The notes under the pieces: model-generated
Databases searched by the model: none
What the model saw: the letters and a program-made list of their open reading frames with translations, nothing else
Told to the model about the DNA's origin: nothing
Shown here: piece after piece, positions 1-41,397 of the stretch
Layout: the number at the start of each line of letters is the position of its first letter
Numbering within the stretch: the stretch's first letter is position 1
Origin: a virus
Lineage: Duplodnaviria > Heunggongvirae > Uroviricota > Caudoviricetes
Virus record (IMG/VR): IMGVR_UViG_3300011337_000358
DNA: 64,000 nt
Strand: one strand, 5' to 3'
Made by a program: the position numbers and the translations under genes

Positions 1-1
1 G

Positions 2-955
2 GCCGCGGCAATTTCTGCATTAGGCGGTTCAATGGGATCAGCTACAGGCGCGGCTGCAGGAGCAGTTGGCGGTGCCAGTATAATGCAAATTATTAAAAAC
101 TTATTTGCCGCAGACGAGAATAGTATACAAGCAGGAATTAAAAAGTGGGTAGAAAGACAAGTAGGTGACGAAGCCGATGTACAAGAATTTTTACTAACTC
201 ATGCCAAAGCCGCATATGACGGTAAACCTGGTTTCCGTTGGAGGGCTAAAGAGTGGCCTGTTAAATTAAGTAAAGATCAAGCAGAAGCATATTTAGAAAA
301 GAAAGATAAATCTTGGCTTGATTATGAAAAGCAAAAAATAATCGATGCTGAAAAAGCGAAGGCTGAAAAAGATAAAGAAGGTATGATGGAAGAACAACTT
401 GATGAACTAAATTGCTGGTCAGGTTACCATAGAGTTGCCGGCACTAAAGCAGGCTTTCCAGGTAGTTGTGCTAAAAATAAAACAAATGAATCAGAACATA
501 AATGCCCACATTGCGGTGGCGAGATGGTTAGTGAAGAACTAATGAATGAAAAGAAAGATGCTTGCTACTATAAAGTAAAGAGCCGTTATAAAGTATGGCC
601 AAGTGCTTATGCTAGTGGTGCGTTAGTTAAGTGCCGTAAGAGTGGTGCTGATAGCTGGGGCAACGGTGGAAAGAAGAATGAAGGTTCTATACTAGAAGGT
701 ATTAACCGAGCAGACGAAAGTTTGCATGATTGGTTTAATAAAGAAAAGTGGGTTCGCATGGATACTAAAGGAAAGATTAAAGGTCCGTGTGCTAGAGAAC
801 CAGGAGAAGGTAAACCTAAATGTTTACCTCAAGCAAAGGCACATAGTTTAGGCAAAAAAGGTCGTGCAAGCGCGGCTGCTAGAAAACGCAGAGAAGATCC
901 CAATCCAGAACGTAGTGGTAAAGCCATCAATGTTAATACTAAAAAGAAAGACTAA
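2..955 (+). CDS. Hypothetical Gly/Ala-rich, Lys-rich protein with a CxxC…CxxC zinc ribbon; 5'-truncated. Shares Gly-rich and 'EEQLDE(L/I)N' segments with the 593-aa capsid-targeted protein at 30334-32115.
   Basis: Reading frame is open from the window edge ('AAISALGGS' precedes the first Met). It shares 'G(M/T)EEQLDE(L/I)N' and 'GxxGxxG'-type Ala/Gly stretches with ORF 30334-32115(-). 'CPHCGG' is present. Confidence 0.5.
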   Translation, partial: AAAISALGGSMGSATGAAAGAVGGASIMQIIKNLFAADENSIQAGIKKWVERQVGDEADVQEFLLTHAKAAYDGKPGFRWRAKEWPVKLSKDQAEAYLEKKDKSWLDYEKQKIIDAEKAKAEKDKEGMMEEQLDELNCWSGYHRVAGTKAGFPGSCAKNKTNESEHKCPHCGGEMVSEELMNEKKDACYYKVKSRYKVWPSAYASGALVKCRKSGADSWGNGGKKNEGSILEGINRADESLHDWFNKEKWVRMDTKGKIKGPCAREPGEGKPKCLPQAKAHSLGKKGRASAAARKRREDPNPERSGKAINVNTKKKD

Positions 956-964
956 AGGACAATA

Positions 965-1405
965 ATGTTATCAGATAATCTAAAAGTACTTTTAGCTAGT
1001 ACACAAAGTTTTGCTATTAAAACACAAAACTTTCATTGGAATGTTGAGGGGAGTAATTTTCCACAGTATCATGCATTTTTTGATACGTTATACGGTGATG
1101 TAAGTGCTACTATCGATCCTATCGCTGAATATATCAGAATATTAGGTGCTTACACACCCGGCAGTTTACAACGTTATGCTGAACTAAGTATCATTCAAGA
1201 CCAAATCAAAATCCCACGTGCTCAACTAATGTTTGCTGAATCACTACAAGATTGTGAAAAAATGAGTGAATTAGTCGTTGCTATGTTTGACGAAGCAACA
1301 AACGAACGTCAGCAAGGCATTGCTAATTACATGGCTGAACTACAAGACCTATACGGTAAGAAAGCATGGTTCATTCGTTCTACATTGAAAACAGAACGTG
1401 AGTAA
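965..1405 (+). CDS. dps: Dps-like ferritin (DNA-binding protein from starved cells) homolog
   Basis: 'QNFHWNVEGSNF' matches the Dps signature 'HNFHWNVKGPNF'. Size (~146 aa) and the downstream 'ELSIIQD' helix pattern fit the ferritin-like fold. Confidence 0.75.
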   Translation: MLSDNLKVLLASTQSFAIKTQNFHWNVEGSNFPQYHAFFDTLYGDVSATIDPIAEYIRILGAYTPGSLQRYAELSIIQDQIKIPRAQLMFAESLQDCEKMSELVVAMFDEATNERQQGIANYMAELQDLYGKKAWFIRSTLKTERE

Positions 1406-2675
1406 ATTAGAATTTACCCAGAAAGAATGGGAAAAGATAGAAAATAACGGGACTTATTGTCCCGGTTTATTTAACAGCAAATACATAGAAACTGACGGTG
1501 GACTGAGAGCATGTTGTGTTCAAGATTTAAAAGGTGAACATTATACAAATACAGAATCCTATAACACCACTTCGTTAAAACAAGCCAGACAAAATTCATT
1601 ATCAGGGATTAAAGATTCCAGTTGCGCTAGATGTTGGGAAAATGAATCATTAAACACCAGATCATATAGACAAGGTCTAGTAGAGTCTGCTATTCACTGG
1701 AAAAGTAAAATCAAAGATAATATAAATGTTGACTATTCCATCACAGAACCCACCATAGACTACTTAGACATTAGATTTGATAATATCTGTAATTTAAGAT
1801 GTAGATATTGCAGTACTATTTTTAGTTCTAGTTGGAGACACGAAACTGAGTTACTAGAAAAAGAATTACCAATATTTAAATATATAAAAAGAAGATCAGT
1901 AGATACAAAAATATTGAATAGTGTAACCGATATTGACACGATATTAGCTGACCTTAGAACAGTTAAAAAAATATTTTTTGCGGGTGGCGAGCCATTAGTA
2001 AACGATAAACATTATGAAGTGTTAGAATATCTAATAGATAATAATAGAACCAACATTGAAATAACGTATAATACTAATTTTACAAACATTAAAAAAGTTA
2101 TTCCTTATTGGAAAAAGTTTTCAAACATACACGTGGGTGCAAGTTTAGATGCAAATTATAAAAGAGGAGAATACATTCGTAAAAATCTCGTATGGGACCA
2201 GATTGTAGAAAATAGAAAATTAATGATTGCCGAAGTTCCTCATGTTCAATTTGAAATAAATGCGTCAATGAGTATATTGAATGCGTATAATGTAGTAGAT
2301 TTTCATAAAGAATGGATTAATGATAAATTAATTGGACCTTTTGATTTAACTGCATGGAATTTTGTATCTAAACCTGAACATTATGATATTAGGAATTTAC
2401 CTGACCATCATAAGATTAAATTAAAAGAAATATATCAAACTCATATTGATTGGTTAAACTCCCTCACATCAGGCAATGATATTAAGTTTAAAAGTAAAAA
2501 TGATTCTAGTTTTGCTATTCAATCATATCAAGGTATAATTAATAGGTTAAATTTAAGTAGAAATTCATCTTTTGACAAATTTTGGGAATTTGACAAATGG
2601 TTAGATAATAATAGAGATGAAAACTTTTTTGATGTGTTTCCTGAGTATGAGGACTTTGCTAGATATTTTAGCTAA
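1398..2675 (+). CDS. Radical SAM enzyme with an additional N-terminal Cys cluster; substrate unknown
   Basis: 'DIRFDNICNLRCRYCS' is a canonical CxxxCxxC radical-SAM motif. An N-terminal 'YCPG…ACCVQ…SCARCW' extra Cys cluster is present. GTG start overlaps the dps stop. Confidence 0.7.
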   Translation: MSKLEFTQKEWEKIENNGTYCPGLFNSKYIETDGGLRACCVQDLKGEHYTNTESYNTTSLKQARQNSLSGIKDSSCARCWENESLNTRSYRQGLVESAIHWKSKIKDNINVDYSITEPTIDYLDIRFDNICNLRCRYCSTIFSSSWRHETELLEKELPIFKYIKRRSVDTKILNSVTDIDTILADLRTVKKIFFAGGEPLVNDKHYEVLEYLIDNNRTNIEITYNTNFTNIKKVIPYWKKFSNIHVGASLDANYKRGEYIRKNLVWDQIVENRKLMIAEVPHVQFEINASMSILNAYNVVDFHKEWINDKLIGPFDLTAWNFVSKPEHYDIRNLPDHHKIKLKEIYQTHIDWLNSLTSGNDIKFKSKNDSSFAIQSYQGIINRLNLSRNSSFDKFWEFDKWLDNNRDENFFDVFPEYEDFARYFS

Positions 2676-2704
2676 ATATTATTATAAGAACAATAGAGAG
2701 TAAC

Positions 2705-3142
2705 ATGAAAAAAATTATAACAACAATACTATTGGCATTAGCCACTGTAACATATGCACAGAAAACACCTCAAGGTGTTACATACGATGCAAACATCATT
2801 AAAGTAAGTGACGGTGACACTATTGTTATTGCCGCACCTTTTTTACCAGCTCCATTAAAGCCACAGTTAGCAGTTAGAATATTTGGTGTTGACACCCCTG
2901 AAAAAGGATTCAGAGCTAAATGTGAATCAGAAAATCAACGTGGTTTAGCCGCTAGCGAGTTTACTAAGAAACTCGTAGGTGCTAGTCAGAAGCGTCAAGT
3001 GATATTATATGATTGGGATAAGTTTGGCGGCCGTGTCTTGGGTGACATTATATTAGACGGCAAAAGCCTACGACAACAATTGATTGCTAATGGCTTTGCC
3101 CGTGAGTATTTTGGTGAAGCCAAGCAATCTTGGTGTAATTAA
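2705..3142 (+). CDS. Secreted staphylococcal-nuclease (SNase/thermonuclease)-like nuclease with signal peptide
   Basis: N-terminal signal peptide 'MKKIITTILLALATVTYA'. SNase motifs 'VSDGDTIVI' and 'RIFGVDTPE' are present. A C-terminal Cys pair is present. Confidence 0.7.
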   Translation: MKKIITTILLALATVTYAQKTPQGVTYDANIIKVSDGDTIVIAAPFLPAPLKPQLAVRIFGVDTPEKGFRAKCESENQRGLAASEFTKKLVGASQKRQVILYDWDKFGGRVLGDIILDGKSLRQQLIANGFAREYFGEAKQSWCN

Positions 3143-3867
3143 TTCTTAGTATAAACAAAGTATAATCTATCGTTATTGTCTTTCTTAAAGGTATCTAACT
3201 TTAGATTGTATTTCTCAGCAAACTCATTTACAACTTCAAAGCTCCAAGGGAAGATTTCTACATAAGGTCCATTTTTGTGAGGAATTCCTGGATTGGCTCG
3301 TAGATAAAATTTTCCACCTACCTTTAGCAAACTAACACAGTGTTCAAATCGTGTTTCAATCTCATCTTTGCTATTGAAGTTAATTGAACCAAGAGCCAGA
3401 ATTACATCGTGTGATTCTGGTTTTACTTTGTACTCTAATATATCAACTTCATAATCAGCTTGATTATTGTATGGATCAATGCCAATCAGATTCTGAATGC
3501 GACCCTTGAATGGGTGATATCCGCAACCAACATCAAGTACTTTTTCTGGGTTTAGTTTGTTAACTTCATCAGCTAGTTCCCAACCAGTGTGTTCATAGTC
3601 ACCTGTGCGTGGTTTCCAAATCTCACTAAAAAAACGTAAGATATAACGTTCACTTAAGTCATGTACAATTTCTTTTAATGTACCCACATAGTCGCAGGGT
3701 AGACTTAATTCAGCTTCCACCGCGTTTTTAAACTTGCTATATCGTGCAGGAGTCCAGGGTAAGTCTTGGACAATAGTGTTTTCATCAATAGAAATTTTGG
3801 AATACTTAGGTAAATTAAACGCAAGTTCTAAATTTTCCTTGACTAACTTAAAAATTTTTGTGTTCAT
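3139..3867 (-). CDS. Class I SAM-dependent methyltransferase (no DNA-MTase DPPY/NPPY motif, so probably a small-molecule or RNA methyltransferase)
   Basis: Motif I 'VLDVGCGYHPF' followed by 'LIGIDP'. Convergent with the nuclease gene. Confidence 0.65.
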   Translation of the reverse strand: MNTKIFKLVKENLELAFNLPKYSKISIDENTIVQDLPWTPARYSKFKNAVEAELSLPCDYVGTLKEIVHDLSERYILRFFSEIWKPRTGDYEHTGWELADEVNKLNPEKVLDVGCGYHPFKGRIQNLIGIDPYNNQADYEVDILEYKVKPESHDVILALGSINFNSKDEIETRFEHCVSLLKVGGKFYLRANPGIPHKNGPYVEIFPWSFEVVNEFAEKYNLKLDTFKKDNNDRLYFVYTKN

Positions 3868-3947
3868 AGTAATTTTTTCTATATTTTGTAAATTTTTATG
3901 CCAAATGGAATAAATATATGTTCATCATATTTATTATCGGAGGACAG

Positions 3948-4907
3948 ATGAGAAAACTTTTAGTATTATTAGCATTTATACCGTTAGTTGCTTTTGCTTG
4001 GCAACCAACAAAACCTGTAACAGTTATATTCCCAAATGGCCCGGGAGCAGGAAATGAAATATCATTTCGTATTGTAGCAGAGATTGTAGAAAAACAAACT
4101 GGTGCAAAATTTGTACCTGAATATAGGCCGGGAGCTGATGGCAATATAGCTATCAATCACTTTGTAACAGTTCCTACTGATGGGCACACTATCAGTGTTC
4201 CAGCATGTCAGTCAAATTGGGTCACCCCTGAAGTGTGGTATCCAAAGGTAATCAAGTATAACCCAATGGATTTAGAACCCATTGCTAATATTGCACGTAG
4301 TCCATTAGCATTCTGGGCGCATCCTAGCAGTAAGATTAATACTCCCGAAGAACTAGTAGCCGCTATTCGCAAAAAAGAGCGCCCTATTACAATAGCAATA
4401 GGTGGCGGCGGTCATAAGTTAGCAGTTGAATATCTTGCTGCCAAACTAAATGTACCGGGCGGTGATCGAATAGAAACAGCTATGTATAAAGGTCCAGCAC
4501 AAGCGTTATTAGATGTAATGGGAGGTCACGTTGAATTTGGAGTGACCCCGGTTGCTGTTGGATACCCTCACGTACAAACAGGAAAACTAAAGTTAATTGG
4601 TATTGCTGATACTAGACCATTGCCTGGATTAGAAACAGCACCATTGATGAATAAGGCAGCACCTGGATTAAGCATACATGGTTGCTGGAATATAGTTCTA
4701 CCTCCCAATACCCCGCAGGATATACAAAAATGGTATGCTGAACACTTTGTTCCTGCAATACGTAGCGCGGAAGCAGGCGCTAAATTCAAAGAAAACATGA
4801 TGTACATTACACCCGAAGAACATAGCCCAGCAGGTGTTCGTGCTAGTATGTCGAGACTACAGCAAGTTTGGCAACCGATTGCTAGAAGAATAGATCCTAA
4901 TAAATGA
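3948..4907 (+). CDS. Periplasmic TctC/Bug-family (tripartite tricarboxylate transporter substrate-binding) protein homolog
   Basis: Signal peptide 'MRKLLVLLAFIPLVAFA'. 'YRPGADGNIA' and 'PTDGHTISV' match Bug/TctC 'RPGAGG…PDGYTL'. RBS GGAGGA precedes the ATG at 3948. Confidence 0.65.
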   Translation: MRKLLVLLAFIPLVAFAWQPTKPVTVIFPNGPGAGNEISFRIVAEIVEKQTGAKFVPEYRPGADGNIAINHFVTVPTDGHTISVPACQSNWVTPEVWYPKVIKYNPMDLEPIANIARSPLAFWAHPSSKINTPEELVAAIRKKERPITIAIGGGGHKLAVEYLAAKLNVPGGDRIETAMYKGPAQALLDVMGGHVEFGVTPVAVGYPHVQTGKLKLIGIADTRPLPGLETAPLMNKAAPGLSIHGCWNIVLPPNTPQDIQKWYAEHFVPAIRSAEAGAKFKENMMYITPEEHSPAGVRASMSRLQQVWQPIARRIDPNK

Positions 4908-5479
4908 AAATAGGTTTATCAATGGAGATGACCCGCAAGTTGCGTGATACGTGGCATGCGGCTATCAATTACGAATGGTATGACTTTTTATCAGAGCATG
5001 ATACTGTTCCTTTATCCTGTCATGGAAAAGTTCCGCAGACAGATGAGTTTGACTTAATCATATTGGCAGGTGGTAATGACATGCACGGCATTAAAACATG
5101 GCGTGACAATCATTATCCAATACGTGACCACTATGAGCATAGTTTGATTCAACAATGTTTGTTAACTAACACCCCTGTTGCTGGCATATGCAGAGGAGCT
5201 CATTTTATCAATCATGTTATGGGTGGCACACATAAGTTAATGGATCACCCATACGACAATGTTAAAGTTCAATTGCCTCAGTTTGAAGTAACTTGCCATC
5301 ACACAATTCAACTTGATACATTAGCTCCTGGCTTTGAAGTGTTACAACAAGATAAAAATGGTATTGTTGAATTAGCAGTAAATAAATCACAACGTATGTT
5401 AGGTATTGGTTGGCATCCAGAACGTGAAGTTAACAAACATACTAGACAATACATTTTAGATTTGATTAAGGACTTATGA
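4904..5479 (+). CDS. Class I glutamine amidotransferase-like / peptidase C26 (PuuD-type) protein
   Basis: Nucleophile elbow 'GICRGAHF' (GATase1 'G-x-C-x-G'). 'GIGWHPE' matches the His-containing 'QFHPE' block. Confidence 0.6.
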   Translation: MKIGLSMEMTRKLRDTWHAAINYEWYDFLSEHDTVPLSCHGKVPQTDEFDLIILAGGNDMHGIKTWRDNHYPIRDHYEHSLIQQCLLTNTPVAGICRGAHFINHVMGGTHKLMDHPYDNVKVQLPQFEVTCHHTIQLDTLAPGFEVLQQDKNGIVELAVNKSQRMLGIGWHPEREVNKHTRQYILDLIKDL

Positions 5480-6096
5480 AATACATATTTGTAGCAGGTG
5501 CACCGGGCAGTAAGTGGAGTAGTGTGGTAAAGAACATTTACTATAGCCCTAGTGTTGACCAATCAGACTATAGTGATGATAGAACATATTATCACGATGC
5601 CAGTGGTAAGTTGGAGTTGATGCATCTAGGTGCATACTATGATCCTGGTATGGAGTTTGGTAAATTGTTTCACAGACTACCTATGTATGACAAAGAAACA
5701 TTAGAACGTGACTTTGATGAAGCATTTACTGGTGAAGGTGTTCGTATTATTAAGTCACACGTGTTTAGTAATCACATTGACTATATCAAAGAAACATGGC
5801 CTGAATGTCCATTAGTTCTGGTGCATCGTCCCGATGACGCATGTTTAGGATGGTGGGTGAAGTGCGGGCATTTCAACATCACATACCCTGACTATAGTGA
5901 ATATTATCAGAACTTGAAAGTAATGGCTGAAAAGATTAAAGAACAGAATCAGGGTATTATCAAAGCAACATATAAGTATCCAGGTCGAGCACCATTAACT
6001 AATCACATGCTGTGTAAGATGCTAAATATAGAACTACCACCGAGTGAGTATGAACAAAATTACGGTGTATCAAACATAAGGGTAACAGTAATATGA
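5476..6096 (+). CDS. Hypothetical protein with a degenerate P-loop-like N-terminus ('VAGAPGSKWSS')
   Basis: ORF with ATGA overlap to its neighbours. No confident motif. Confidence 0.5.
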   Translation: MKYIFVAGAPGSKWSSVVKNIYYSPSVDQSDYSDDRTYYHDASGKLELMHLGAYYDPGMEFGKLFHRLPMYDKETLERDFDEAFTGEGVRIIKSHVFSNHIDYIKETWPECPLVLVHRPDDACLGWWVKCGHFNITYPDYSEYYQNLKVMAEKIKEQNQGIIKATYKYPGRAPLTNHMLCKMLNIELPPSEYEQNYGVSNIRVTVI

Positions 6097-6779
6097 TAAG
6101 CAGTTGGGAACAAAGTAAGAAAAAAAGTAATTATCATTTTGATAATTTCAAAAATGATTTACAAGTTGACAAAGTAACTAAGTTGGGTAAGATAGTTGCA
6201 GACTACAGTGAGGATGTTAAACATGCAATAGAATCTTCAAAGCCAGCAACATGGCGTACACGTGGTGCAGTGGGTAAAACAAGACCTGAAGAAGAATTAG
6301 CCGCAGAAGACTATGATTTGGAACAATTTGGTTATGGTAAAGATTATCAAATCACTCACTTAAATTGGGAAATAACTCCTAACTTGAAAAAGATTAGTGA
6401 TTTGTTCGGTCTATCAGATTGCATGGAACGTATACATGTTCAAAAGCCCGGTGAAGTTTGGAATCTGCATTTAGATAAATTAGAGAAGTGGGCACCCGAT
6501 TCACCTTGGACAGTCATGCGTGTGCAAGTAGCATTGACTGATTGGGAGCAAGGTCATTTCTGGAGTTATGGTAATTACAATCATCAGCAATGGCATGCAG
6601 GCGATGTGACAACATTTGACTGGCATAATTTACCACATTGTACTGCAAATGCAGGACATAACCCTAGAGTCACGTTTCAATTAACTGGTGTTATTACTGA
6701 AAAAACTACAGAGTTTTTAAGTAGATTAAAGAGATTTGATAATTATACCTTGAATTTGTCAGAGAATTCTTGGTTCTGA
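6093..6779 (+). CDS. Hypothetical His/Trp-rich protein (possible cupin-like metal site)
   Basis: ORF that follows the overlap-coupling pattern. No confident motif. Confidence 0.5.
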   Translation: MISSWEQSKKKSNYHFDNFKNDLQVDKVTKLGKIVADYSEDVKHAIESSKPATWRTRGAVGKTRPEEELAAEDYDLEQFGYGKDYQITHLNWEITPNLKKISDLFGLSDCMERIHVQKPGEVWNLHLDKLEKWAPDSPWTVMRVQVALTDWEQGHFWSYGNYNHQQWHAGDVTTFDWHNLPHCTANAGHNPRVTFQLTGVITEKTTEFLSRLKRFDNYTLNLSENSWF

Positions 6780-6871
6780 ACACACCTTAGGACCGGTACT
6801 TGTTACCGCGGTGTAGCCGGCTGCTGGCTTGACGTATGAATTCGCTACTCAGAAGTCTAAAGTGAGCTTTA
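6780..6871 (+). other. Anomalous GC-rich structured intergenic element
   Basis: ~55% GC in a ~38% GC genome. Hairpin CGGTA-CTTGT-TACCG. Palindrome AGCCGGCT. Contains 'TTACCGCGG', 'CTGCTGGC' and 'TACTTGTTAC', which resemble conserved 16S rRNA primer-site sequences. Confidence 0.3.
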
Positions 6872-7141
6872 ATGATAAATAGTATACAAAGGACATTTAT
6901 TATGAAAGAACATATCTACACATCATCCAAAGGAGAGAGTTTTTTATCATGGGATGATTGGGCACTCCAAACACTAAACGAAAGTGATTTGAGTGTTTAT
7001 CTTAGCCCCCAAGTAGAAGGTTCAACATTATCTGCTGATAAATTGGCTTTATATGCACGTTGGGTAGACGAAGAACAAATATTAACACACGTTGTTAAAG
7101 AAGATGATGTTATAATACAACAATCAAATGCACTCAAGTAA
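6872..7141 (+). CDS. Hypothetical small protein
   Basis: ORF; an alternative start 'MKEHIY' at 6902 is possible. Confidence 0.4.
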   Translation: MINSIQRTFIMKEHIYTSSKGESFLSWDDWALQTLNESDLSVYLSPQVEGSTLSADKLALYARWVDEEQILTHVVKEDDVIIQQSNALK

Positions 7142-7700
7142 TTTTATTACAGAATCTGCCGTAGATGAGTTAGCAAAAAAACTACCCTCATTGACTAAAC
7201 ACGACTATGATACCATTGATACATTAATGAGAAGTATTGCCAGTAGACATAGCATGAGTGGTAATGCATTACATGATTTGTTTGTAAAAAAATATAAAAG
7301 AACACCCGATAACTGGATTAAACATAAATTAGACGAAGGTGATGATTCAGATTTGCAACAAGAAGTTGATAAATTCTGCGATTGGGCATGTAAACGATTG
7401 CATATAAAATCTAAACCTGAAATTGAACTCAGTATGGATACTGAAGAAGCACAAAATAATCATCATACAGGTGGTCATCAAATGGGCGCTGATAGTATTT
7501 GGGTATATGTAAATAATCGTAACCTAGTTGATATACTACGCACAGTATTTCATGAATTGGTTCATGTGCGCCAAGGTGAATTAGATATGATTAAGCCGGG
7601 TGATAGTTACCCAGGTAGCCCAATTGAAGCAATGGCAGATATGCTTGCGGGCAAATACATCAAAATTTATGGTGAACAGAACCATCATATCTTTCAATAA
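7128..7700 (+). CDS. Hypothetical HExxH zinc-metallopeptidase-like protein
   Basis: 'VFHELVHVRQGE' HExxH motif. Confidence 0.45.
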   Translation: MHSSNFITESAVDELAKKLPSLTKHDYDTIDTLMRSIASRHSMSGNALHDLFVKKYKRTPDNWIKHKLDEGDDSDLQQEVDKFCDWACKRLHIKSKPEIELSMDTEEAQNNHHTGGHQMGADSIWVYVNNRNLVDILRTVFHELVHVRQGELDMIKPGDSYPGSPIEAMADMLAGKYIKIYGEQNHHIFQ

Positions 7701-7726
7701 TTGATTATTTGTGCTATAATGCACAG

Positions 7727-8323
7727 ATGATTAAGATTACAGTTCCATTACCCAAACAAATTACTGTTGCATGTAGCGGCGGTGTTGATAGTATGGCTGT
7801 AGTTGACTTTCTAAGTCGCAAACACGATGTAACTATTGCCCATTTTAATCATAGAACACAAAACGGTGAACGTGCCGCCCAATTTGTTTCTGGGTATTGT
7901 GGTGATAATAATATTCCTATGCTATACGGATCACCTCGCAGTGAACGCGGAACAAAAGAATCAATGGAAGAATATTGGCGCAGAGAACGATATGAATTCC
8001 TAAGCGAATTAGGACCGGTCATCACTTGTCATCATCTGGATGACTGTGTTGAGACATATGTTTGGTCTAGTTTACATGGTACAGCCAAAGTTATCCCACT
8101 CACTCGCAAAAATGTATTGCGCCCATTTTTAACTACACGTAAGAGTGAATTTGTTCGATGGTGTGAACAACATAAAGTTCCTTGGATTGAGGACGAATCA
8201 AACAAAGATACCAAATACACAAGAAATTACATTCGCAACGAAATGATGCCACATATATTGAAAGTCAATCCGGGCATTCATACTTTGGTCAAGAAGATTG
8301 TAGAAGGTAAGCAAAATACTTGA
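7727..8323 (+). CDS. tilS: PP-loop ATP pyrophosphatase; matches TilS (tRNA(Ile)-lysidine synthetase) catalytic domain better than QueC
   Basis: 'ACSGGVDSMAV' PP-loop. 'AHFNHR' matches the TilS 'HxNHxLR' block. 'CHHLDDCVETYVW' matches TilS 'HHLDDQAET'. 'WIEDESNKDTKYTRNYIRN' matches TilS 'W.EDESN.D..Y.RN.IR'. The QueC C-terminal CxxC…C zinc cluster is absent. An extended -10 'TGCTATAAT' lies at 7712-7720. Confidence 0.7.
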   Translation: MIKITVPLPKQITVACSGGVDSMAVVDFLSRKHDVTIAHFNHRTQNGERAAQFVSGYCGDNNIPMLYGSPRSERGTKESMEEYWRRERYEFLSELGPVITCHHLDDCVETYVWSSLHGTAKVIPLTRKNVLRPFLTTRKSEFVRWCEQHKVPWIEDESNKDTKYTRNYIRNEMMPHILKVNPGIHTLVKKIVEGKQNT

Positions 8324-8348
8324 CTTCTCTACGCAAGCCAAGTACAAT
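8320..8348 (+). promoter_or_regulatory. Promoter TTGACT-17-TACAAT
   Basis: Hexamers with a 17-nt spacer. Confidence 0.5.
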
Positions 8349-8371
8349 AACTAATTATTTAAGGAGAAACT

Positions 8372-8638
8372 ATGTCAGATTATAACAGAACCTTTAACGG
8401 TGAGGCAAAAATTAAACTAACTCAACTAGTAAATGAGGGCATGACAGTCCTACATGAGATTGATACATTGAATGGTGGATTGAATGACACTATTAAAGCA
8501 GTCGCAGAAGAACTTGAAATCAAGGCTTCTACTTTGAAGAAAGCAATTAAAATTGCTCACAAAGCAAGTCTCGGTCAGACTAACAAAGACCACGATGAAC
8601 TCAACACTATCTTGGAAACTGTGGGCAAAACACTTTGA
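8372..8638 (+). CDS. Hypothetical small protein
   Basis: ORF preceded by TTGACT-17-TACAAT (8320-8348) and RBS AAGGAGA. Confidence 0.55.
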   Translation: MSDYNRTFNGEAKIKLTQLVNEGMTVLHEIDTLNGGLNDTIKAVAEELEIKASTLKKAIKIAHKASLGQTNKDHDELNTILETVGKTL

Positions 8639-11343
8639 GTTACGTTGACGCTATTCATAGTAGGGATGAAGACCGTATCTACGTGGTAGAACGTGATAAG
8701 AATGGCGTACGCCAGTATAAAGAATATCCTACTAACTATGTGTTGTATTACCCTGACCACAAGGGTAAACATCGTAGTATCTATGGCAATCCAGTTAGTC
8801 GTTTCAGTACACGCAAACGCACCGAGTTTGAAAAAGAAAAGCGCATCCACTCAGGTAAAACATTGTTTGAATCTGATATCAATGTAGTCTTTCGTTGTCT
8901 AAGCGAAAACTATCTTAAAGTTGATGCACCTAAACTTCATACTTGCTTCTTTGACATTGAAGTGGACTTTGATCCAGTCAAAGGATTCAGTCCTACAAGT
9001 GATCCATTCAATCCCGTAACTGCTATCAGTTGTTACTTAGATTGGCTTGACCAATGTATTACATTAGTTATTGCTCCTAAGCACATGACCACTGAGACTG
9101 CGTGGGAAATAGTTAGAGAGTTTCCTAATTGTTTTCTTTGCAATAACGAAAAGGAAATGTTTGATACATTCTTTGAATTAATTGAAGATGCTGATGTATT
9201 AACTGGCTGGAACTCAGAAGGATACGATATTCCATATATGGTCAATCGTGTTACTAGAGTAATGAGTAAAGATGATACACGCAAGTTTTGCTTGATGGGT
9301 CAGCTTCCTAAACCTCGTGAGTACGAACGATTTGGTAAGAAAGAAATGACTTACGATTTAGTCGGTAGAATTCACCTTGACTATTTACAACTTTACAAAA
9401 AGTATAACTATGAATCTCGACATTCATATAAGTTAGATGCTATCGGTGAGATGGAAGTTGGTGAAAACAAAACACAATATGAAGGTACTCTTGACCAGTT
9501 GTATAACAAAGACTTTAAAAAGTTCATTGAATACAATAGGCAAGATACAATGTTGTTGGTGAAGATTCACAACAAACTTAAGTTTTTAGAATTAGCTAAT
9601 CAACTTGCACACGAAAATACAGTACTGCTTCCAACAGTAATGGGTTCAGTGGCAATGATTGAGATGGCAATTTTTAATGAGGCCCACGAACGTGGGTTAG
9701 TTGTCCCAGATAAAAAACGAAAGGTTGAAAATGCAGAAGAAATCCAGCAGGCAGCAGGTGCCTATGTTGCTACGCCCAAAAGAGGTATGCACGAATGGGT
9801 CGGCGCCGTCGACATTAACTCGCTCTATCCCTCGGTTATTCGTGCCGTCAACATGGGAGGAGAAACGATTGTCGCACAAGTCAGACAAACATTAACCGAT
9901 CACTACATGAAAGAAAAGGGTCGTAATCTTGCTGAAGGAAAGAAATATTTCAAAGAAGGTGATGAAGATGTGACTGGTGCTATATTATGGGAGAACTTGT
10001 TCGGCTCATTAGAATATACTGCTATTATGAACCAAGAGCGTGGCACAATGCTTACTGTAGATTACGAAGATGGTCGTAGTGAAGAAATGAGTGCGGCAGA
10101 AGTATGGAAGATGATTTTTGATAGTCACAAACCCTGGATGCTCTCTGCAAACGGAACAATCTTCACATATGAAAAAGAAGGTGTTGTTCCTGGTCTACTC
10201 ACACGCTGGTATACAGAACGTAAAGTAATTCAAAAACAAGCAAAAGAAGCATATGGCACAGATATGTATGATTATTACGACAAGCGACAACTAGTTCGTA
10301 AGATTTTATTGAACTCCGCGTATGGTGCATTGTTGAACGAACATTGTCGTTTCTATGATAAGCGCATTGGTCAAAGTGTTACATTGAGTGGGCGTCAAAT
10401 CGTGCGACACATGATGAGTACAATCAATGAATCAGTAACTGGTGATTATAATCACGAAGGTCCTGCAATTGTTTATGGTGATACTGACTCATGTTATTTC
10501 ACAGCATATCCTATTCTTAAACAGCAAATTGAGAGTGGCGAACTAACTTGGGATAAAGAAACTTGTATCGGATTGTATGATGGCATCGCTGACCAAGCTA
10601 ATGAATCGTTCCCTGCATTTATGGAACGTGCATTTCATGCACCTCGCAAGAATGGTGAGATTATTAAAGCTGGTCGTGAACTGATCGGTGATCGTAGTAT
10701 CTTTATCACTAAGAAACGTTATGCTATTAACATCTTTGACAAAGAGGGCAAGCGTAAAGATAAAGACGGTGCTCTTGGTGATATCAAAGCTATGGGTCTT
10801 GACTTGAAACGTGCTGATACACCTAAGTATGTACAAGAATTCTTAATGGATGTGCTTGAGATGGTTCTTCAACGAGGTAAAAATCGTGAGGATGTAATTG
10901 AACGTGTTAAGGAATTTAAACGTGTTATGGTAGCACAGGACAGCTGGACTAAAGGTTCTCCTAAATCAGTTAATAATTTAACTAAGCATACACAAATATT
11001 TGACAAAACAGGTAAGTGTGGTGTTGGTCACGCACGTGCCGCAATCAATTGGAACTATCTACGCAGAATGAATGGGGACAACTACAGTCAACAAATTGTT
11101 GATGGTATGAAAATTATTGTATGTAAACTTAAATCTAACCCATTAGGCTTTAATAGTATTGCTTATCCGGTTGATGAATTACGATTGCCTACATGGTTCA
11201 AAGAATTACCATTTGACGATAGTGCAATGGAATCAACATTGGTTGATGAAAAGATTGACAACTTGCTTGGTGTTCTTAATTGGGACATTAAGAGTAACAT
11301 TGATGTTAAATCTACGTTTGATGACTTATTCAGTTTCGGTTAA
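8635..11343 (+). CDS. Family B DNA polymerase, T4 gp43-like
   Basis: Exonuclease I motif 'FFDIEVDF' and polymerase motif C 'VYGDTDS'. The N-terminus 'RIYVVERDKNGVRQYKEYPTNY' parallels T4 gp43 'NIVERYIDENGKERTREVEYLPTMF'. Length is 902 aa (T4 gp43 is 898 aa). TTG start overlaps the upstream stop. Confidence 0.95.
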   Translation: MSYVDAIHSRDEDRIYVVERDKNGVRQYKEYPTNYVLYYPDHKGKHRSIYGNPVSRFSTRKRTEFEKEKRIHSGKTLFESDINVVFRCLSENYLKVDAPKLHTCFFDIEVDFDPVKGFSPTSDPFNPVTAISCYLDWLDQCITLVIAPKHMTTETAWEIVREFPNCFLCNNEKEMFDTFFELIEDADVLTGWNSEGYDIPYMVNRVTRVMSKDDTRKFCLMGQLPKPREYERFGKKEMTYDLVGRIHLDYLQLYKKYNYESRHSYKLDAIGEMEVGENKTQYEGTLDQLYNKDFKKFIEYNRQDTMLLVKIHNKLKFLELANQLAHENTVLLPTVMGSVAMIEMAIFNEAHERGLVVPDKKRKVENAEEIQQAAGAYVATPKRGMHEWVGAVDINSLYPSVIRAVNMGGETIVAQVRQTLTDHYMKEKGRNLAEGKKYFKEGDEDVTGAILWENLFGSLEYTAIMNQERGTMLTVDYEDGRSEEMSAAEVWKMIFDSHKPWMLSANGTIFTYEKEGVVPGLLTRWYTERKVIQKQAKEAYGTDMYDYYDKRQLVRKILLNSAYGALLNEHCRFYDKRIGQSVTLSGRQIVRHMMSTINESVTGDYNHEGPAIVYGDTDSCYFTAYPILKQQIESGELTWDKETCIGLYDGIADQANESFPAFMERAFHAPRKNGEIIKAGRELIGDRSIFITKKRYAINIFDKEGKRKDKDGALGDIKAMGLDLKRADTPKYVQEFLMDVLEMVLQRGKNREDVIERVKEFKRVMVAQDSWTKGSPKSVNNLTKHTQIFDKTGKCGVGHARAAINWNYLRRMNGDNYSQQIVDGMKIIVCKLKSNPLGFNSIAYPVDELRLPTWFKELPFDDSAMESTLVDEKIDNLLGVLNWDIKSNIDVKSTFDDLFSFG

Positions 11344-11351
11344 ATTGCTCA

Positions 11352-11380
11352 TTGACATTTGCAATAAATGCCATTATAAT
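11352..11380 (+). promoter_or_regulatory. Sigma70-type promoter (TTGACA-17-TATAAT) for 11425-12153
   Basis: Consensus hexamers. Confidence 0.6.
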
Positions 11381-11424
11381 ACACAACATAACTACCTAAA
11401 TAGTACTATACATAAAGGAAAAAC

Positions 11425-12153
11425 ATGAAAGACTATCTTAAAGACTTAATCGACCATACACATGGTCTTGGTATTGATTTGATTAAAATCACAGGTACCG
11501 ACACAGAAACACAATTCAATGCTATTGCAGAAGATAAAAGTGTTATTGTTAGTGGAACATTTAAAAACCCAATTCACGATTTCATCGGTGTATTTGGTAT
11601 GCCTAACTTAAGCAAACTAAAAACAATCGTTGGCTTTGATGAGTATGATGAACATGCTAAAATCAATGTGTCTAAAACACAACGTGACGGTGAAGATGTT
11701 CCCGGAGCAATTCACTTTGAAACAAAGGCAGGTGACTTCATTAATGACTATCGTTTGATGTATAGAACAGTTGTTGAAGAAAAGATTAAATCTGTTGGCT
11801 TTAAAACTCCACCATGGAACGTTAGCTTTGAGCCTACTATTGCTGGCATTCAACGTTTGAAAAAACAAGCAAGTGCTAATAGCGAAGAAGAACATTTTGT
11901 TGCAAAAACTGACGGTGATGACTTGAAATACTATTTTGGTGACCCATCAACACACAGTGGTAGTTTTGTGTTTCATCCACAAGTAGGTGGTACATTATCT
12001 AAGAGTTGGTACTGGCCTGTTAAACAGGTTATTGGCATCATGGATCTAGTCGGTGATAAAATTGTTCGTATCAGTGATGCTGGTGCAACAGAAATTATTG
12101 TTGATAGTGGTTTAGCTACATATTGCTATAGACTCCCAGCACAAGCAAAATGA
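11425..12153 (+). CDS. Hypothetical protein; possible sliding-clamp (gp45-like) by position and size
   Basis: Lies immediately downstream of the polymerase. At 242 aa it is close to T4 gp45 (228 aa), with a loosely similar hydrophobic pattern ('FIGVFGMPNLSKL' vs gp45 'AIYDLNGFLGILSL'). Own promoter at 11352-11380. Confidence 0.35.
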   Translation: MKDYLKDLIDHTHGLGIDLIKITGTDTETQFNAIAEDKSVIVSGTFKNPIHDFIGVFGMPNLSKLKTIVGFDEYDEHAKINVSKTQRDGEDVPGAIHFETKAGDFINDYRLMYRTVVEEKIKSVGFKTPPWNVSFEPTIAGIQRLKKQASANSEEEHFVAKTDGDDLKYYFGDPSTHSGSFVFHPQVGGTLSKSWYWPVKQVIGIMDLVGDKIVRISDAGATEIIVDSGLATYCYRLPAQAK

Positions 12154-24629: not shown

Positions 24630-24827
24630 ATGAACAAAAAAATTACAGAACTATGGGAACAGGCCGCTCAACGAGATGACTTACTAGACGAAAAACGGTA
24701 TGAGCATTTTGCTGAATTATTAATTAGAGATTGTGCAAAACAAGTTAATCATCTGGCTAAACAAGGTGGCGGAACTTGGGGCGAAGTCATTCTAGAAAAC
24801 TACAATATAAGTGTATATAAAAAATGA
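24630..24827 (+). CDS. Hypothetical small protein
   Basis: ORF. Confidence 0.4.
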   Translation: MNKKITELWEQAAQRDDLLDEKRYEHFAELLIRDCAKQVNHLAKQGGGTWGEVILENYNISVYKK

Positions 24828-25672
24828 GTCATTTAAAAGTATCAGAATTATTTTACAGTATCCAGGGAGAAGGTCGCTATATGGGAGTGCCAAGTATTTT
24901 CCTAAGAACATATGGATGCAATTTTACATGCGGTGGCTTCGGTATGCCTAAGGGAGAAATGAGTAATGAGAGAGATGTTATCGCAATTAAAGCAGAAGAT
25001 TATACAGATTATAAATCCTTACCACTTGTCAGTACTGGATGTGATAGTTACGCATCTTGGGACCCTCGCTTTAAACATCTTAGTCCTGTTATCTCTACCG
25101 ATTCTATTGCTGACAGTATTATGGATATACTTCCTCACAAGCGTTGGATGGATGAACATCTTGTTATTACAGGTGGTGAACCTTTGCTTGGATGGCAAAG
25201 AGCGTATCCAGACTTACTTTCAAACGAGAAAATGAGAGCATTGAAAGAGATTACATTTGAAACTAATGGCACACAAGAACTAAGTAAAGACCTTACTAAC
25301 TATCTTCATCAATGGAAGATCAGCCGTGAAAATAACGCACTTACATTCAGTGTGAGTCCTAAACTTAGTATCAGCGGTGAGAAGTGGGAAGAAGCAATAT
25401 GTCCACAAGTTGTTCGTCAATATGAAAGTGTTGGCTTTGTATATCTTAAATTTGTTATTGCTACTAAAGAAGATGCGATTGAGGCAGATAAAGCAGTTAA
25501 AGAATTTCGTACAGCTGGATTCAGAGGTCCAATATACTTCATGCCATGCGGTGGTGTAGAAAGTATCTATAATTTAAATGCTAGAAATGTTGCTATTGAA
25601 GCAATGAATCGTGGCTATCGCTATAGTGATAGATTACAGGTGCCTCTATTTAAAAATGAATGGGGGACATAA
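24824..25672 (+). CDS. queE: QueE-family radical SAM 7-carboxy-7-deazaguanine synthase
   Basis: 'ELFYSIQGEGRYMGVPSIFLRTYGCN' matches QueE 'EMFQTLQGEGYFTGVPAIFIRLQGC'. The Cys cluster 'GCNFTCGG' is atypical. Confidence 0.8.
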   Translation: MSHLKVSELFYSIQGEGRYMGVPSIFLRTYGCNFTCGGFGMPKGEMSNERDVIAIKAEDYTDYKSLPLVSTGCDSYASWDPRFKHLSPVISTDSIADSIMDILPHKRWMDEHLVITGGEPLLGWQRAYPDLLSNEKMRALKEITFETNGTQELSKDLTNYLHQWKISRENNALTFSVSPKLSISGEKWEEAICPQVVRQYESVGFVYLKFVIATKEDAIEADKAVKEFRTAGFRGPIYFMPCGGVESIYNLNARNVAIEAMNRGYRYSDRLQVPLFKNEWGT

Positions 25673-32822: not shown

Positions 32823-32851
32823 TTGACTTTATTGCGTAGTTGTGCTACACT
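32823..32851 (+). promoter_or_regulatory. Promoter TTGACT-17-TACACT for uvdE. The divergent region also carries rc 'GATAAATA' (32860-32867) for the minus-strand late operon.
   Basis: Hexamers; T4 late promoter consensus is TATAAATA. Confidence 0.5.
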
Positions 32852-32880
32852 GTATATATTATTTATCACTTTGGGCTTTT

Positions 32881-33909
32881 ATGTACACAAATCAATCAGT
32901 CAAACGTATCGGCTTTGCTTGCAAATGGGCAGAAATCAACAAGAAAGGTGAAATTGCTTCAGCCGAAGGTCTTAACACTGGCGGCACAACTCATGCTTGG
33001 GCAAAGCGTAATAGTCGTAATGTAGTAGAAGAAAAGATTATGGATGTTGCAAAACGCAATATTATGAATACACATGCACTAGTTAAACGTGTCGCTACAC
33101 TAGAACCACAATTACGTATGTTGCGTCTTACTAGCGATATGCTGAGTTTTTACACACTAGATGAATATAAAGGCTTTTGGCAAAGTAGTGATGTACAAAA
33201 CAGCTTGGCTCGATGGTTTGCCCCGATCGGGGAAACAGCACGTGCCAATGATGTTCGTCTTAGTTTTCACCCTGACCAGTTTGTAGTTTTAGCAAGCGAC
33301 CGTGAAGAAGTAGTAAATAAGAGTATTGAAGAATTTGAATATCATTGTGACATGGTTCGTTGGATGGGCTATGGCAAAGAGTTTCAAGACTTCAAAGTAA
33401 ATGTACATATCTCGGGACGTAAAGGCCCACAAGGCATCAGGGATGTGTACAACAGATTGTCGCCAGAAGCGAGAAACACACTAACACTAGAGAATGAGGA
33501 ATACACACATGGACTTACTGACTGCTTATCATTATCTGACCTCGTACCTACGGTCATGGACATACATCACAATTGGATTCGTGAGGGAGAATATATTTCC
33601 CCCAATGATGACAACGTTAAAAAGGTTATTGATAGTTGGCGCGGTATTAGGCCTACTTTACATTACTCCGTCAGCCGTGAAGATGTACTTGTCGGGCATT
33701 CCGGATCACAGTTACCCGATCATGGTGCGTTGATTGAATCTGGATACAGTAAGCAAAAACTTCGGGCACATAGTGATTACTATTGGAACGAAGCTGTGAA
33801 CGATTGGGCATTGACATTCATTGATAAATTTGATATGATGTGTGAATCGAAGGCAAAGAATCTTGCCAGCTTTAAATTATTAGAGAGATATAAATGTTTG
33901 ACAAAATAA
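32881..33909 (+). CDS. uvsE: UV DNA damage endonuclease (UvdE/UvsE) homolog
   Basis: The ordered blocks match B. subtilis UvsE: 'RIGFACKW' / 'RFGFVSNA', 'VRLSFHPDQFVVLAS' / 'LRTSFHPNQFTLFTS', 'VNVHISG' / 'INIHIGG', 'TLTLENEE' / 'RMTLENDD', 'DIHHNW' / 'DFHHF', 'RAHSDYV' / 'RSHADYV'. Promoter TTGACT-17-TACACT at 32823-32851. Confidence 0.8.
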   Translation: MYTNQSVKRIGFACKWAEINKKGEIASAEGLNTGGTTHAWAKRNSRNVVEEKIMDVAKRNIMNTHALVKRVATLEPQLRMLRLTSDMLSFYTLDEYKGFWQSSDVQNSLARWFAPIGETARANDVRLSFHPDQFVVLASDREEVVNKSIEEFEYHCDMVRWMGYGKEFQDFKVNVHISGRKGPQGIRDVYNRLSPEARNTLTLENEEYTHGLTDCLSLSDLVPTVMDIHHNWIREGEYISPNDDNVKKVIDSWRGIRPTLHYSVSREDVLVGHSGSQLPDHGALIESGYSKQKLRAHSDYYWNEAVNDWALTFIDKFDMMCESKAKNLASFKLLERYKCLTK

Positions 33910-36050: not shown

Positions 36051-37049
36051 ATGAAATACGCACTCATTGACACAGCAAATACATTCTTCCGTGCCCGTCA
36101 CATTGCATCACGTAATAGTGATACATGGGAAAAGATCGGCATGGCCCTACACTTGACATTGGCAAGTACTAATCAAATTGTTCGCAAGTTTGGTGTGGAT
36201 CACGTTGTGTTTTGTTTAGAGGGTCGTAGCTGGCGCAAAAGTTTCTACGAGCCATACAAGAAAAATCGCATTGTTGATACACTATCACAAACAGAAGCCG
36301 AGATTGAAGAAAATAAAATGTTCTGGGAGACGTATGAAGTATTTACAAATTTTTTACGTGAGAAAACTAATGTTAGTGTCCTTCGTCATGCTGAGGCTGA
36401 GGCTGATGACTTAATTGCACGTTTCATTCACTTGCATCCCGATGATGAACATTTTATTATCAGTAGCGATAGCGACTATGTGCAATTGATTACCGAAAAT
36501 GTAAAACAATATAATGGGGTAGCTAATCAACTGATTACGTTAGATGGTTACTTTGATGACAAGGGTAAGATTGTCAAAGATAAGAAAACTAAAGAACCCA
36601 AGCTACTAGAAGATCCACAATATTTGCTATTTAAAAAATGTATGCGGGGTGATGGTACTGACAATGTGTTTAGTGCTTATCCTGGTGTGCGTGAGAAAGG
36701 TAGCAAGAATAAAGTTGGCTTGATGGAAGCATATGCTGATAGAGAAAAACAGGGCTACCAGTGGAACAATCTACTACTTCAACGCTGGCTAGACCATAAT
36801 GGAGTAGAACATCGTGTACGTGAGGATTATGAACGTAATCGTATACTAATTGATTTGACTGCACAACCTCAGGATATCAAAGACAAGGTTGATGCTAGTA
36901 TCATTGAGGGTGTTCGTACAACTACTACCCCTCAAGTTGGTATTCACTTTATGCGATTCTGTGGCAAATATGAGTTGACTAAGATTAGTGAACAAGCAGA
37001 AACATATGCGAAATGGTTGAATAGTCCTTACATGGGAAGTTTAGTATGA
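36051..37049 (+). CDS. rnh: 5'-3' exonuclease / flap endonuclease (T4 RNase H-like)
   Basis: 'LIDTANTFFRARHI' matches the FEN 'LLVDGSSLAFRAFYA' block. 'ISSDSDYVQLI' matches 'GDKDLLQLV'. Promoter at 36016-36044. Confidence 0.8.
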   Translation: MKYALIDTANTFFRARHIASRNSDTWEKIGMALHLTLASTNQIVRKFGVDHVVFCLEGRSWRKSFYEPYKKNRIVDTLSQTEAEIEENKMFWETYEVFTNFLREKTNVSVLRHAEAEADDLIARFIHLHPDDEHFIISSDSDYVQLITENVKQYNGVANQLITLDGYFDDKGKIVKDKKTKEPKLLEDPQYLLFKKCMRGDGTDNVFSAYPGVREKGSKNKVGLMEAYADREKQGYQWNNLLLQRWLDHNGVEHRVREDYERNRILIDLTAQPQDIKDKVDASIIEGVRTTTTPQVGIHFMRFCGKYELTKISEQAETYAKWLNSPYMGSLV

Positions 37050-41076: not shown

Positions 41077-41397
41077 ATGAAACAACTTATCGCTCTATTT
41101 GCCGCTGTTGCAGTTGGCACCGCTTTTGCTCAAGCTCCTGCTAAAAAGGAAGAAGCCAAGCCAGCCGCGGCTGCTCCTGCTAAAAAGGAAGAAGCCAAGC
41201 CAGCCGCGGCTGCTCCTGCTCCAGCTAAAGCAACAGCGCCGGCTGCACCTGCTAAAGCAGAAGCACCAAAAGAAGAAATGAAATTAGCTAAGAAGAAAGA
41301 AGACAAAAAAGCTGATGCCACTAAAAGTGAAGCAAAGCCTGCTAGTCCAGCGCCAGCAAAAGCTGACGATAAAAAAGCCGAAGCTCCTAAGAAGTAA
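41077..41397 (+). CDS. Secreted low-complexity Ala/Lys/Pro-rich repeat protein
   Basis: Signal peptide 'MKQLIALFAAVAVGTAFA'. Tandem 'APAKKEEAKPAAAA' repeats (42-bp direct DNA repeat at 41136-41219). RBS AAAGGAAATC. Confidence 0.6.
   Translation: MKQLIALFAAVAVGTAFAQAPAKKEEAKPAAAAPAKKEEAKPAAAAPAPAKATAPAAPAKAEAPKEEMKLAKKKEDKKADATKSEAKPASPAPAKADDKKAEAPKK
41136..41219 (+). repeat. 42-bp perfect tandem duplication inside the AKP-rich gene
   Basis: 'GCTCCTGCTAAAAAGGAAGAAGCCAAGCCAGCCGCGGCT' ×2. Confidence 0.8.

Follow-up and report, generated by a model that had tools for sequence, protein, structure and literature searches.

Nuc, the micrococcal nuclease of Staphylococcus aureus (PF00565, COG1525), is a small, basic enzyme secreted by means of a signal peptide, in which Asp21, Asp40 and Thr41 bind Ca2+ and Arg35, Glu43 and Arg87 are catalytic. 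Nucleases of another family are exported against arriving DNA by mobile elements: IdeA (ICE VchInd5), SxnA (SXT) and Dns (Campylobacter CJIE1 prophage) are of the endonuclease-I type rather than the staphylococcal nuclease (SNase) type, are encoded by integrated elements, which profit from long-term residence, and have a demonstrated effect on natural transformation, not on phages. In T4, superinfection exclusion and breakdown involve the phage proteins Imm and Sp together with the periplasmic endonuclease I of the host. Here we describe a gene located at 2705..3142 (+) in 64,000 nucleotides of DNA from a tailed phage (Caudoviricetes; IMG/VR record IMGVR_UViG_3300011337_000358), the whole of which is referred to below as the window. 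The gene encodes the precursor of an SNase-family nuclease, which we hold with moderate confidence to be a jumbo-phage enzyme exported by the Sec route to the periplasm of a diderm host, there destroying unprotected extracytoplasmic nucleic acid.

The gene is complete and occupies exactly the plus-strand interval assigned to it in an earlier sequence-only reading of this DNA, beginning with ATG and encoding 145 amino acids followed by a TAA stop (3140-3142). An AGAGAG stretch located 4 nt 5' of the ATG (2695..2700, +) reads as a purine-rich, possible ribosome-binding site. The open reading frame (ORF) is genuine and strongly constrained by purifying selection: the ratio of nonsynonymous to synonymous substitution rates (dN/dS) against relatives is 0.04-0.12 over the whole gene and 0.02-0.09 over the mature part (residues 19-145), where dN is 0.015-0.19. 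An identical protein (P0001) is on record for 16 contigs; 18 contigs that carry it were examined. The GC content of the gene is 39.3%, versus 37.1% for the window.

By sequence, profile and predicted fold, the product is a member of the SNase family with all six catalytic and Ca2+-binding residues intact. The Pfam comparison that the sequence-only reading had suggested as a check upheld its assignment (PF00565, E=2.4e-10; 41.3 bits against a gathering cut-off of 21), and PF00565 is precomputed for all 240 homologs listed. The protein also matches PHROG 452, 'endonuclease' (E=1.5e-18). A phmmer search of PDB sequences returned about 280 S. aureus nuclease variants with E from 2e-6, aligned over query residues 28-134, and a profile of 47 family members matched PDB SNase with E=2.9e-13. 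The mature nuclease domain (2759..3139, +; residues 19-145) comprises 127 residues, with a mass of 14.0 kDa and a pI of 9.2, and is predicted to adopt the oligonucleotide/oligosaccharide-binding (OB) fold of SNase. The two motifs singled out earlier, DGDT (residues 36-39; 2810..2821, +) and the RIFGVDTPE block (residues 58-66; 2876..2902, +), hold five of the six functional residues, and the sixth, R110 (codon 3032..3034, +), lies within the segment DKFGGRV.

Residue equivalences were taken from HMMER alignments to PDB chains and numbered on the mature S. aureus nuclease, and conservation was scored on 129 aligned full-length representatives, following an exhaustive HMMER search that returned 4385 clusters at E<=1e-3 and 852 at E<=1e-10. 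The Ca2+ ligands Asp21, Asp40 and Thr41 correspond to D38 (kept in 125/129), D63 (127/129) and T64 (121/129), and the catalytic residues Arg35, Glu43 and Arg87 to R58 (126/129), E66 (128/129) and R110 (126/129). The Arg, Glu and Asp on which the sequence-only reading had staked its assignment do, then, align with those of SNase. Tyr113 of SNase is kept as Y135, and Tyr85 is replaced by F107. An AlphaFold2 model built with 47 diverse relatives in the alignment reached a predicted local distance difference test score (pLDDT) of 89.5 and a predicted template-modeling (TM) score of 0.79; 25 near-identical sequences had reached a pLDDT of only 58.9, and the wider alignment was used instead. All 50 best matches listed by Foldseek against the PDB were S. 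aureus nuclease, at about 30% identity and TM scores of 0.59-0.69 (top matches with E 5.5e-9 and TM 0.62-0.69, the rest with E to ~2e-8).

Compared with Nuc, the phage protein has the same predicted fold, about 30% identity over some 107 residues and equivalent Ca2+-binding and catalytic residues, and it is likewise small, basic and furnished with a signal peptide. It differs in the replacement of Tyr85 (Phe107), in a two-residue loop insertion carrying Cys73 and in Cys144, both cysteines being absent from Nuc, and in coming from a phage whose host should be diderm. It also lacks the C-terminal helix of SNase, because it stops about 10 residues after Y135, and has no Nuc-type propeptide. Scores against the NCBIfam equivalogs NucI (NF047694; 37.6 versus a cut-off of 250 bits) and EcnA (NF047969; 33.6 versus 180 bits) fall so far short that we regard the protein as a member of the SNase family and not as an orthologue of either. 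The literature retrieved on EcnA consisted of unrelated plant papers only.

The mature protein contains exactly two cysteines. Cys73 (codon 2921..2923, +) lies in the insertion, within the loop that follows E66 and corresponds to the omega-loop region of SNase, and Cys144 (codon 3134..3136, +) is the penultimate residue, in the terminal SWCN; they are kept in 128/129 and 125/129 representatives, respectively, and both occur in 125/129. Viral relatives in IMG/VR amount to at least 555 contigs, and the locus counts given from here on refer to the best 80 of these, which are 64-94% identical. All 80 proteins terminate in WC or in WC plus a single additional residue. Within the GTDB set, 37 homologs have both cysteines, 29 have neither and 13 are discordant. 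Homologs in a Rhizobium phage and a Manatee-Spring phage have the leader and both cysteines; that of cyanophage S-RIM2, the sole clearly leaderless phage homolog inspected, is without both. Because the two residues tend to co-occur or to be missing together, this distribution suggests a C73-C144 disulfide, which would be formed after export.

Residues 1-18 (2705..2758, +) behave as a cleavable leader for the Sec system and signal peptidase I (SPI), in keeping with the signal peptide postulated in the sequence-only reading; the assignment draws on our own scoring of the n-, h- and c-regions and on comparisons among homologs. Reading MKKIITTILLALATVTYA|QKTP, the N-terminus is built like a Sec signal peptide, with a positively charged n-region (MKK), an uncharged h-region of 12 residues (IITTILLALATV) and a c-region (TYA) with small residues at -3 and -1, followed by a predicted cleavage site at A18|Q19; it contains neither a lipobox cysteine nor a twin arginine. 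Among the 120 closest homologs (>=89% identity) the leader is the sole strongly variable stretch, with a column entropy of 1.07 bits over residues 1-18 against 0.11 over residues 19-145. Position -1 is nonetheless Ala in 110 and Ser in 10 of these 120, position -3 is always A, T, V, G or S, and not one charged residue occurs in the h- or c-region. Leader dN (0.13-0.34) is 2-20 times that of the mature part, and leader dN/dS is about 0.3-0.9. It is because the sequence drifts while its physical properties stay constrained that we interpret the segment as a cleaved signal. A signal-peptide-like leader with a scored cleavage site is present in 78/80 viral loci, the other two also having a hydrophobic N-terminus, and a signal-peptide-like leader is found in 111/129 cluster representatives. 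Three other assignments were considered and discarded: a lipoprotein, for want of a lipobox cysteine; a substrate of twin-arginine translocation, for want of the RR pair; and a membrane anchor, the 12-residue h-region being too short and followed by an AxA-type site. No outer-membrane secretion signal was evident by inspection in a protein that ends one residue past Cys144. Of the bacterial SNase relatives examined, nearly all have a leader or an anchor, and to judge from their sequences export is the norm of the family rather than something special to the phage nuclease.

On these grounds the enzyme most likely acts outside the cytoplasm. The contrary proposal, that it degrades host DNA in the cytoplasm in the manner of T4 or T7, its N-terminus being no export signal or its true start lying downstream, could appeal to the leaderless state of some phage SNase homologs, such as that of S-RIM2, and to the position of the gene in a replication and nucleotide module. 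We give it very little credence: hundreds of variants preserve leader function and a canonical cleavage motif, residues 2-145 contain no in-frame Met for a restart, and a conserved cysteine pair is typical of exported proteins. Moreover, separate leaderless nucleases in the window, at 32842-33909 (phrog_8420 endonuclease) and 36051-37049 (phrog_107 exonuclease), would serve the intracellular work.

The window offers several indications of phage and host identity. A T4-type family-B DNA polymerase (8635-11343, +; phrog_262, E=3e-197) is 49% identical to that of Sinorhizobium phage Phosso, 46% to that of Agrobacterium phage Atu_ph07 and 44% to those of Klebsiella phages RaK2 and K64-1, and is followed by an ATP-dependent ligase, an exonuclease, an endonuclease and a QueE-like enzyme. 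A relative of the nuclease (95% identity over 91% of the query) is encoded on a 356-kb metagenomic JGI contig, Ga0502775_0000029. By its sequence the window belongs to a jumbo phage, with RaK2, Atu_ph07 and Phosso as distant relatives, a placement made solely on DNA polymerase protein similarity. A megablast search of positions 1-12000 against GenBank phages gave no nucleotide-level match, no tRNAs were found in the window, and among cultured relatives in the RaK2/Atu_ph07-like group no match to the nuclease was obtained at E<=1e-5.

The host should be diderm (of the Gram-negative type), since the window encodes lipobox lipoproteins, SPI leaders and a TctC-type periplasmic binding protein. Five envelope-targeted ORFs (41077-41397, 43314-44615, 50035-50832, 54152-54784 and 54788-55753, +) include three with lipoboxes (LSG|C, VSA|C and LTG|C) and two with SPI-type leaders; one lipobox protein is an SPFH/Band-7 lipoprotein (PF01145; phrog_200), and the other four are without a family match. 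The predicted first mature residue of the nuclease, Q19, is Gln in all 120 close homologs and in 66 of the 80 viral relatives, a count that rises to 71 when AQG is taken as A|QG. This agrees with the Q-rule described for SPI substrates of Bacteroidetes (PMC5837995, PMC10653852), which other leaders in the window obey just in part. The closest GTDB matches (60-79% identity) come from lake metagenome-assembled genomes, mostly of Bacteroidota (four of the five closest) and also of Actinobacteria (Planktophila) and Armatimonadetes, and are read as mis-binned phage contigs. The Q-rule fit and the GTDB matches together give a weak hint of a Bacteroidota host.

These features can be assembled into a provisional scheme. 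During infection of a diderm host the precursor would leave the cytoplasm by the host Sec system, its leader would be removed at A18|Q19, and the C73-C144 disulfide would form in the oxidizing periplasm, where the basic 14-kDa enzyme (pI 9.2) would build up. The S. aureus enzyme suggests by analogy a requirement for Ca2+ at levels unusual in the cytoplasm, so that compartment and metal need together would shield the replicating phage genome from what is presumably a sequence-nonspecific DNase and RNase. Given these limits, and the leaderless nucleases that would serve inside the cell, its likely substrates are, in the periplasm, genomes of later-arriving phages that fail or are blocked at the inner membrane and DNA taken up by the cell, and, after lysis, released DNA and RNA. 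As to the benefit for the phage, we infer that destruction of foreign or competing DNA in the periplasm comes slightly first, with post-lysis clearing a close second.

Periplasmic destruction of arriving DNA is made plausible by analogy. IdeA, SxnA and Dns are likewise nucleases that mobile elements export against DNA arriving at the cell, and two reports (PMC12378983, PMC7693049) describe the breakdown of incoming DNA by these periplasmic enzymes. The likeness to T4 is one of concept: late-arriving phage DNA that is kept outside the cytoplasm is destroyed there by a nuclease. In T4, however, that nuclease belongs to the host, and the phage blocks entry at the membrane; among the window ORFs scanned, no comparable block was identified.

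Several points weigh against this use of the enzyme. According to a review (PMC10975011), the DNA of tailed phages is normally protected from nucleases of the periplasm during entry. Such a nuclease should therefore be insufficient by itself to exclude these phages. A PHROG scan of ten exported or membrane ORFs of the window revealed no Imm/Sp-like or other exclusion protein, and no holin or spanin annotation either, and PADLOC returned for the nuclease only a weak SNc+LTD domain match (1.3e-6). A strictly lytic phage, in addition, would profit little from blocking transformation. The early- or middle-looking position of the gene in its module does not prove the timing of its expression, and the disulfide step is a presumed one, derived from the pattern of conserved cysteines.

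The evidence for export fits equally well a second use, in which nuclease parked in the periplasm digests, once the cell has lysed, the released host DNA and RNA along with unpackaged phage DNA, and so frees capsid-protected virions to disperse. SNase is known to be robust extracellularly, where Ca2+ is available, and secreted streptococcal DNases encoded by prophages have been proposed to help phage spread. A link to lysis is also hinted at by loci in which the gene adjoins a wall hydrolase of the glycoside hydrolase family 19 (GH19) or 'chitinase A' type, namely in the Caudoviricetes genome MW202675 and in 6/80 viral loci. Most lineages, on the other hand, place the gene amid replication and nucleotide genes and not in lysis cassettes, and the gain is doubtful where the hosts are freshwater plankton living at low density. 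Post-lysis clearing is as compatible with the data as periplasmic destruction of arriving DNA; as an account of what the gene is chiefly for, we consider it possible, and advance it tentatively.

A third use, the digestion of extracellular DNA or RNA for phosphate and nucleotides to feed the replication of a very large genome, draws on genes that lie close by. Ribonucleotide reductase is often near: the nuclease gene directly follows the alpha and beta subunit genes in Rhizobium phage RHph_Y65, and the small subunit is encoded within three genes of it in 12/80 loci. The relatives are of lake origin, homologs with the same cysteine pair occur in Bdellovibrio-like predators, and a phage-encoded TctC periplasmic solute-binding protein lies 0.8 kb from the nuclease, although the two genes occur together in only 1/80 loci. 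A protein exported by Sec and SPI and showing no further secretion signal, however, should stay in the periplasm, and its C-terminus, one residue past Cys144, leaves no room for a secretion domain. Outside DNA is unlikely to be scavenged during infection, since in polymeric form it should not pass an intact outer membrane unaided, and products released after lysis come too late for an infection already finished. No exported phosphatase or nucleotidase was recognized among the exported window proteins scanned. Altogether we regard nutrient scavenging as improbable, and return to an exported nuclease directed at unprotected nucleic acid in the periplasm and, perhaps, in the lysate.

The 80 best viral loci span several phage lineages, most of them representing other phage backgrounds than the one described here. 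Within the phage's own lineage, and confined to it, is a local order consisting of ferritin/Dps, a variable insert, the SNase gene, a second variable insert, a 190-aa protein, a PP-loop ATPase and DNA polymerase; the variable inserts comprise the radical S-adenosylmethionine (SAM) gene, the minus-strand 'methyltransferase', TctC and the amidotransferase. In the window the nuclease gene lies on the plus strand amid genes of replication and nucleotide metabolism. Elsewhere, a SegE-type GIY-YIG homing endonuclease (PF19835, E=1.9e-32, as in locus L121) is encoded downstream of the nuclease in 15/80 loci, at position +1 in 13 and +2 in 2; a T4-type DNA polymerase is near it in 8/80 (at -1 in 7 and -2 in 1), UvsX in 7/80 and an HNH endonuclease in 6/80. 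The GH19-like hydrolase of the six loci mentioned above is a sub-threshold Pfam match. Immediately upstream of the nuclease in 10/80 loci (for example L157) is an exported, Cys-rich protein of 119 aa with a glycine-zipper-like segment and no family match, which could be a partner or inhibitor of the nuclease.

Because it is found in several lake-phage lineages with differing neighbors, the nuclease gene is, on sequence grounds, an accessory component of replication and nucleotide modules that is mobile yet strongly conserved. Neighboring homing endonucleases may explain how nucleases of 64-82% identity come to reside in unrelated phage backgrounds. A bolder extension would make the SNase a weapon that freshwater phages of the T4-like and jumbo kinds widely use against other phages, one that supplies from the phage itself the superinfection breakdown of stalled genomes, maybe erases periplasmic DNA as a lysis-timing cue, and has spread as cargo beside SegE-type homing endonucleases; we put this forward as speculation and think it rather doubtful.

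The family itself is already known, its members being labeled publicly as 'micrococcal nuclease' or 'endonuclease YncB (thermonuclease family)', and SNase-fold proteins have already been catalogued in many viruses. Homologs in cultured phages bear the label 'nuclease SNase-like protein'; EVB97_211 of Rhizobium phage RHph_Y65 and the 'nuclease-like protein' of MW202675 are 47-54% identical to the protein described here, with the same leader and cysteine pair. Copies on plasmids (of Phaeobacter, Shewanella and others) belong to the same subfamily at 29-37% identity, and clearly chromosomal bacterial homologs are about 28-35% identical, with uninformative neighborhoods (transposase, deacetylase, TerB, sulfotransferase and unknown proteins). 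Such thermonuclease-family relatives of phages and plasmids provide a name and not a function, the role of each being putative. Searches of the literature for an SNase of a jumbo phage, or a phage SNase with a signal peptide, yielded no relevant paper. At present the gene counts as a correctly recognizable thermonuclease homolog, and nothing fundamental is altered by it. A settled role would explain why many uncultured lake phages retain a strongly conserved exported nuclease (relatives occur on at least 555 IMG/VR contigs, with 64-82% identity across genome contexts). Such knowledge would likewise reveal if the arming of the periplasm against rival DNA, on record to date for integrated elements with a different nuclease family, is also practiced by lytic phages that infect diderm bacteria.

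Among the immediate neighbors, the ORF at 3139..3867 (-; 242 aa) had been called a SAM methyltransferase convergent with the nuclease. The convergence stands, the stop codons overlapping by 4 nt; the enzymatic identity is less secure, since the ORF has a VLDVGCG motif resembling a SAM-binding site and its matches to class-I methyltransferases are sub-threshold. It gives in addition a weak PADLOC match to 'mad2' (8e-6) and is the lone minus-strand gene in the first 28 kb. The methyltransferase-like ORF accompanies the nuclease in 1/80 viral loci and is absent from the 356-kb relative, and the link, weak as judged from these loci, is probably not a meaningful one.

Upstream, the nuclease gene is separated by a gap of 29 nt from a radical SAM gene (1398-2675, +), and in the 356-kb relative its start overlaps the stop of the preceding gene as ATGA; it would then be co-transcribed with the genes upstream. 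Sigma-70-like promoter matches in the window are not enriched (40 found versus 32 +/- 5.2 in shuffles), and the sole match reaching the upstream gap of the nuclease (2656-2685) is weak, at 9/12. No terminator was found between the nuclease gene and the overlapping convergent ORF. With promoter matches not enriched and no terminator between the convergent genes, the timing of nuclease expression is something that we infer.

The radical SAM gene product contains a Twitch domain (NCBIfam NF033640, E=3.9e-90) and gives weak viperin-like matches in NCBIfam and PADLOC; the GC content of the gene is low, at 29%. Before it lies a Dps/ferritin-like gene (965-1405, +; PF00210; phrog_3636 'DNA binding protein'), which is found upstream of the nuclease in most own-lineage loci whose sequence extends that far. 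On the other side, the TctC/Bug-type solute-binding protein (3918-4907, +, with a likely start at 3948; PF03401, E=1.2e-21) carries a signal peptide of its own (MRKLLVLLAFIPLVAFA). It is absent from the 356-kb relative, and may be an unusual candidate auxiliary gene for nutrient uptake. Further along the window are a glutamine amidotransferase (4904-5479, +), a PP-loop ATPase (PF01171; 7709-8323, +) and the QueE-like radical SAM enzyme (24824-25672, +; phrog_2076, E=5e-53), a combination that hints at a 7-deazaguanine-type pathway of DNA or nucleotide modification.

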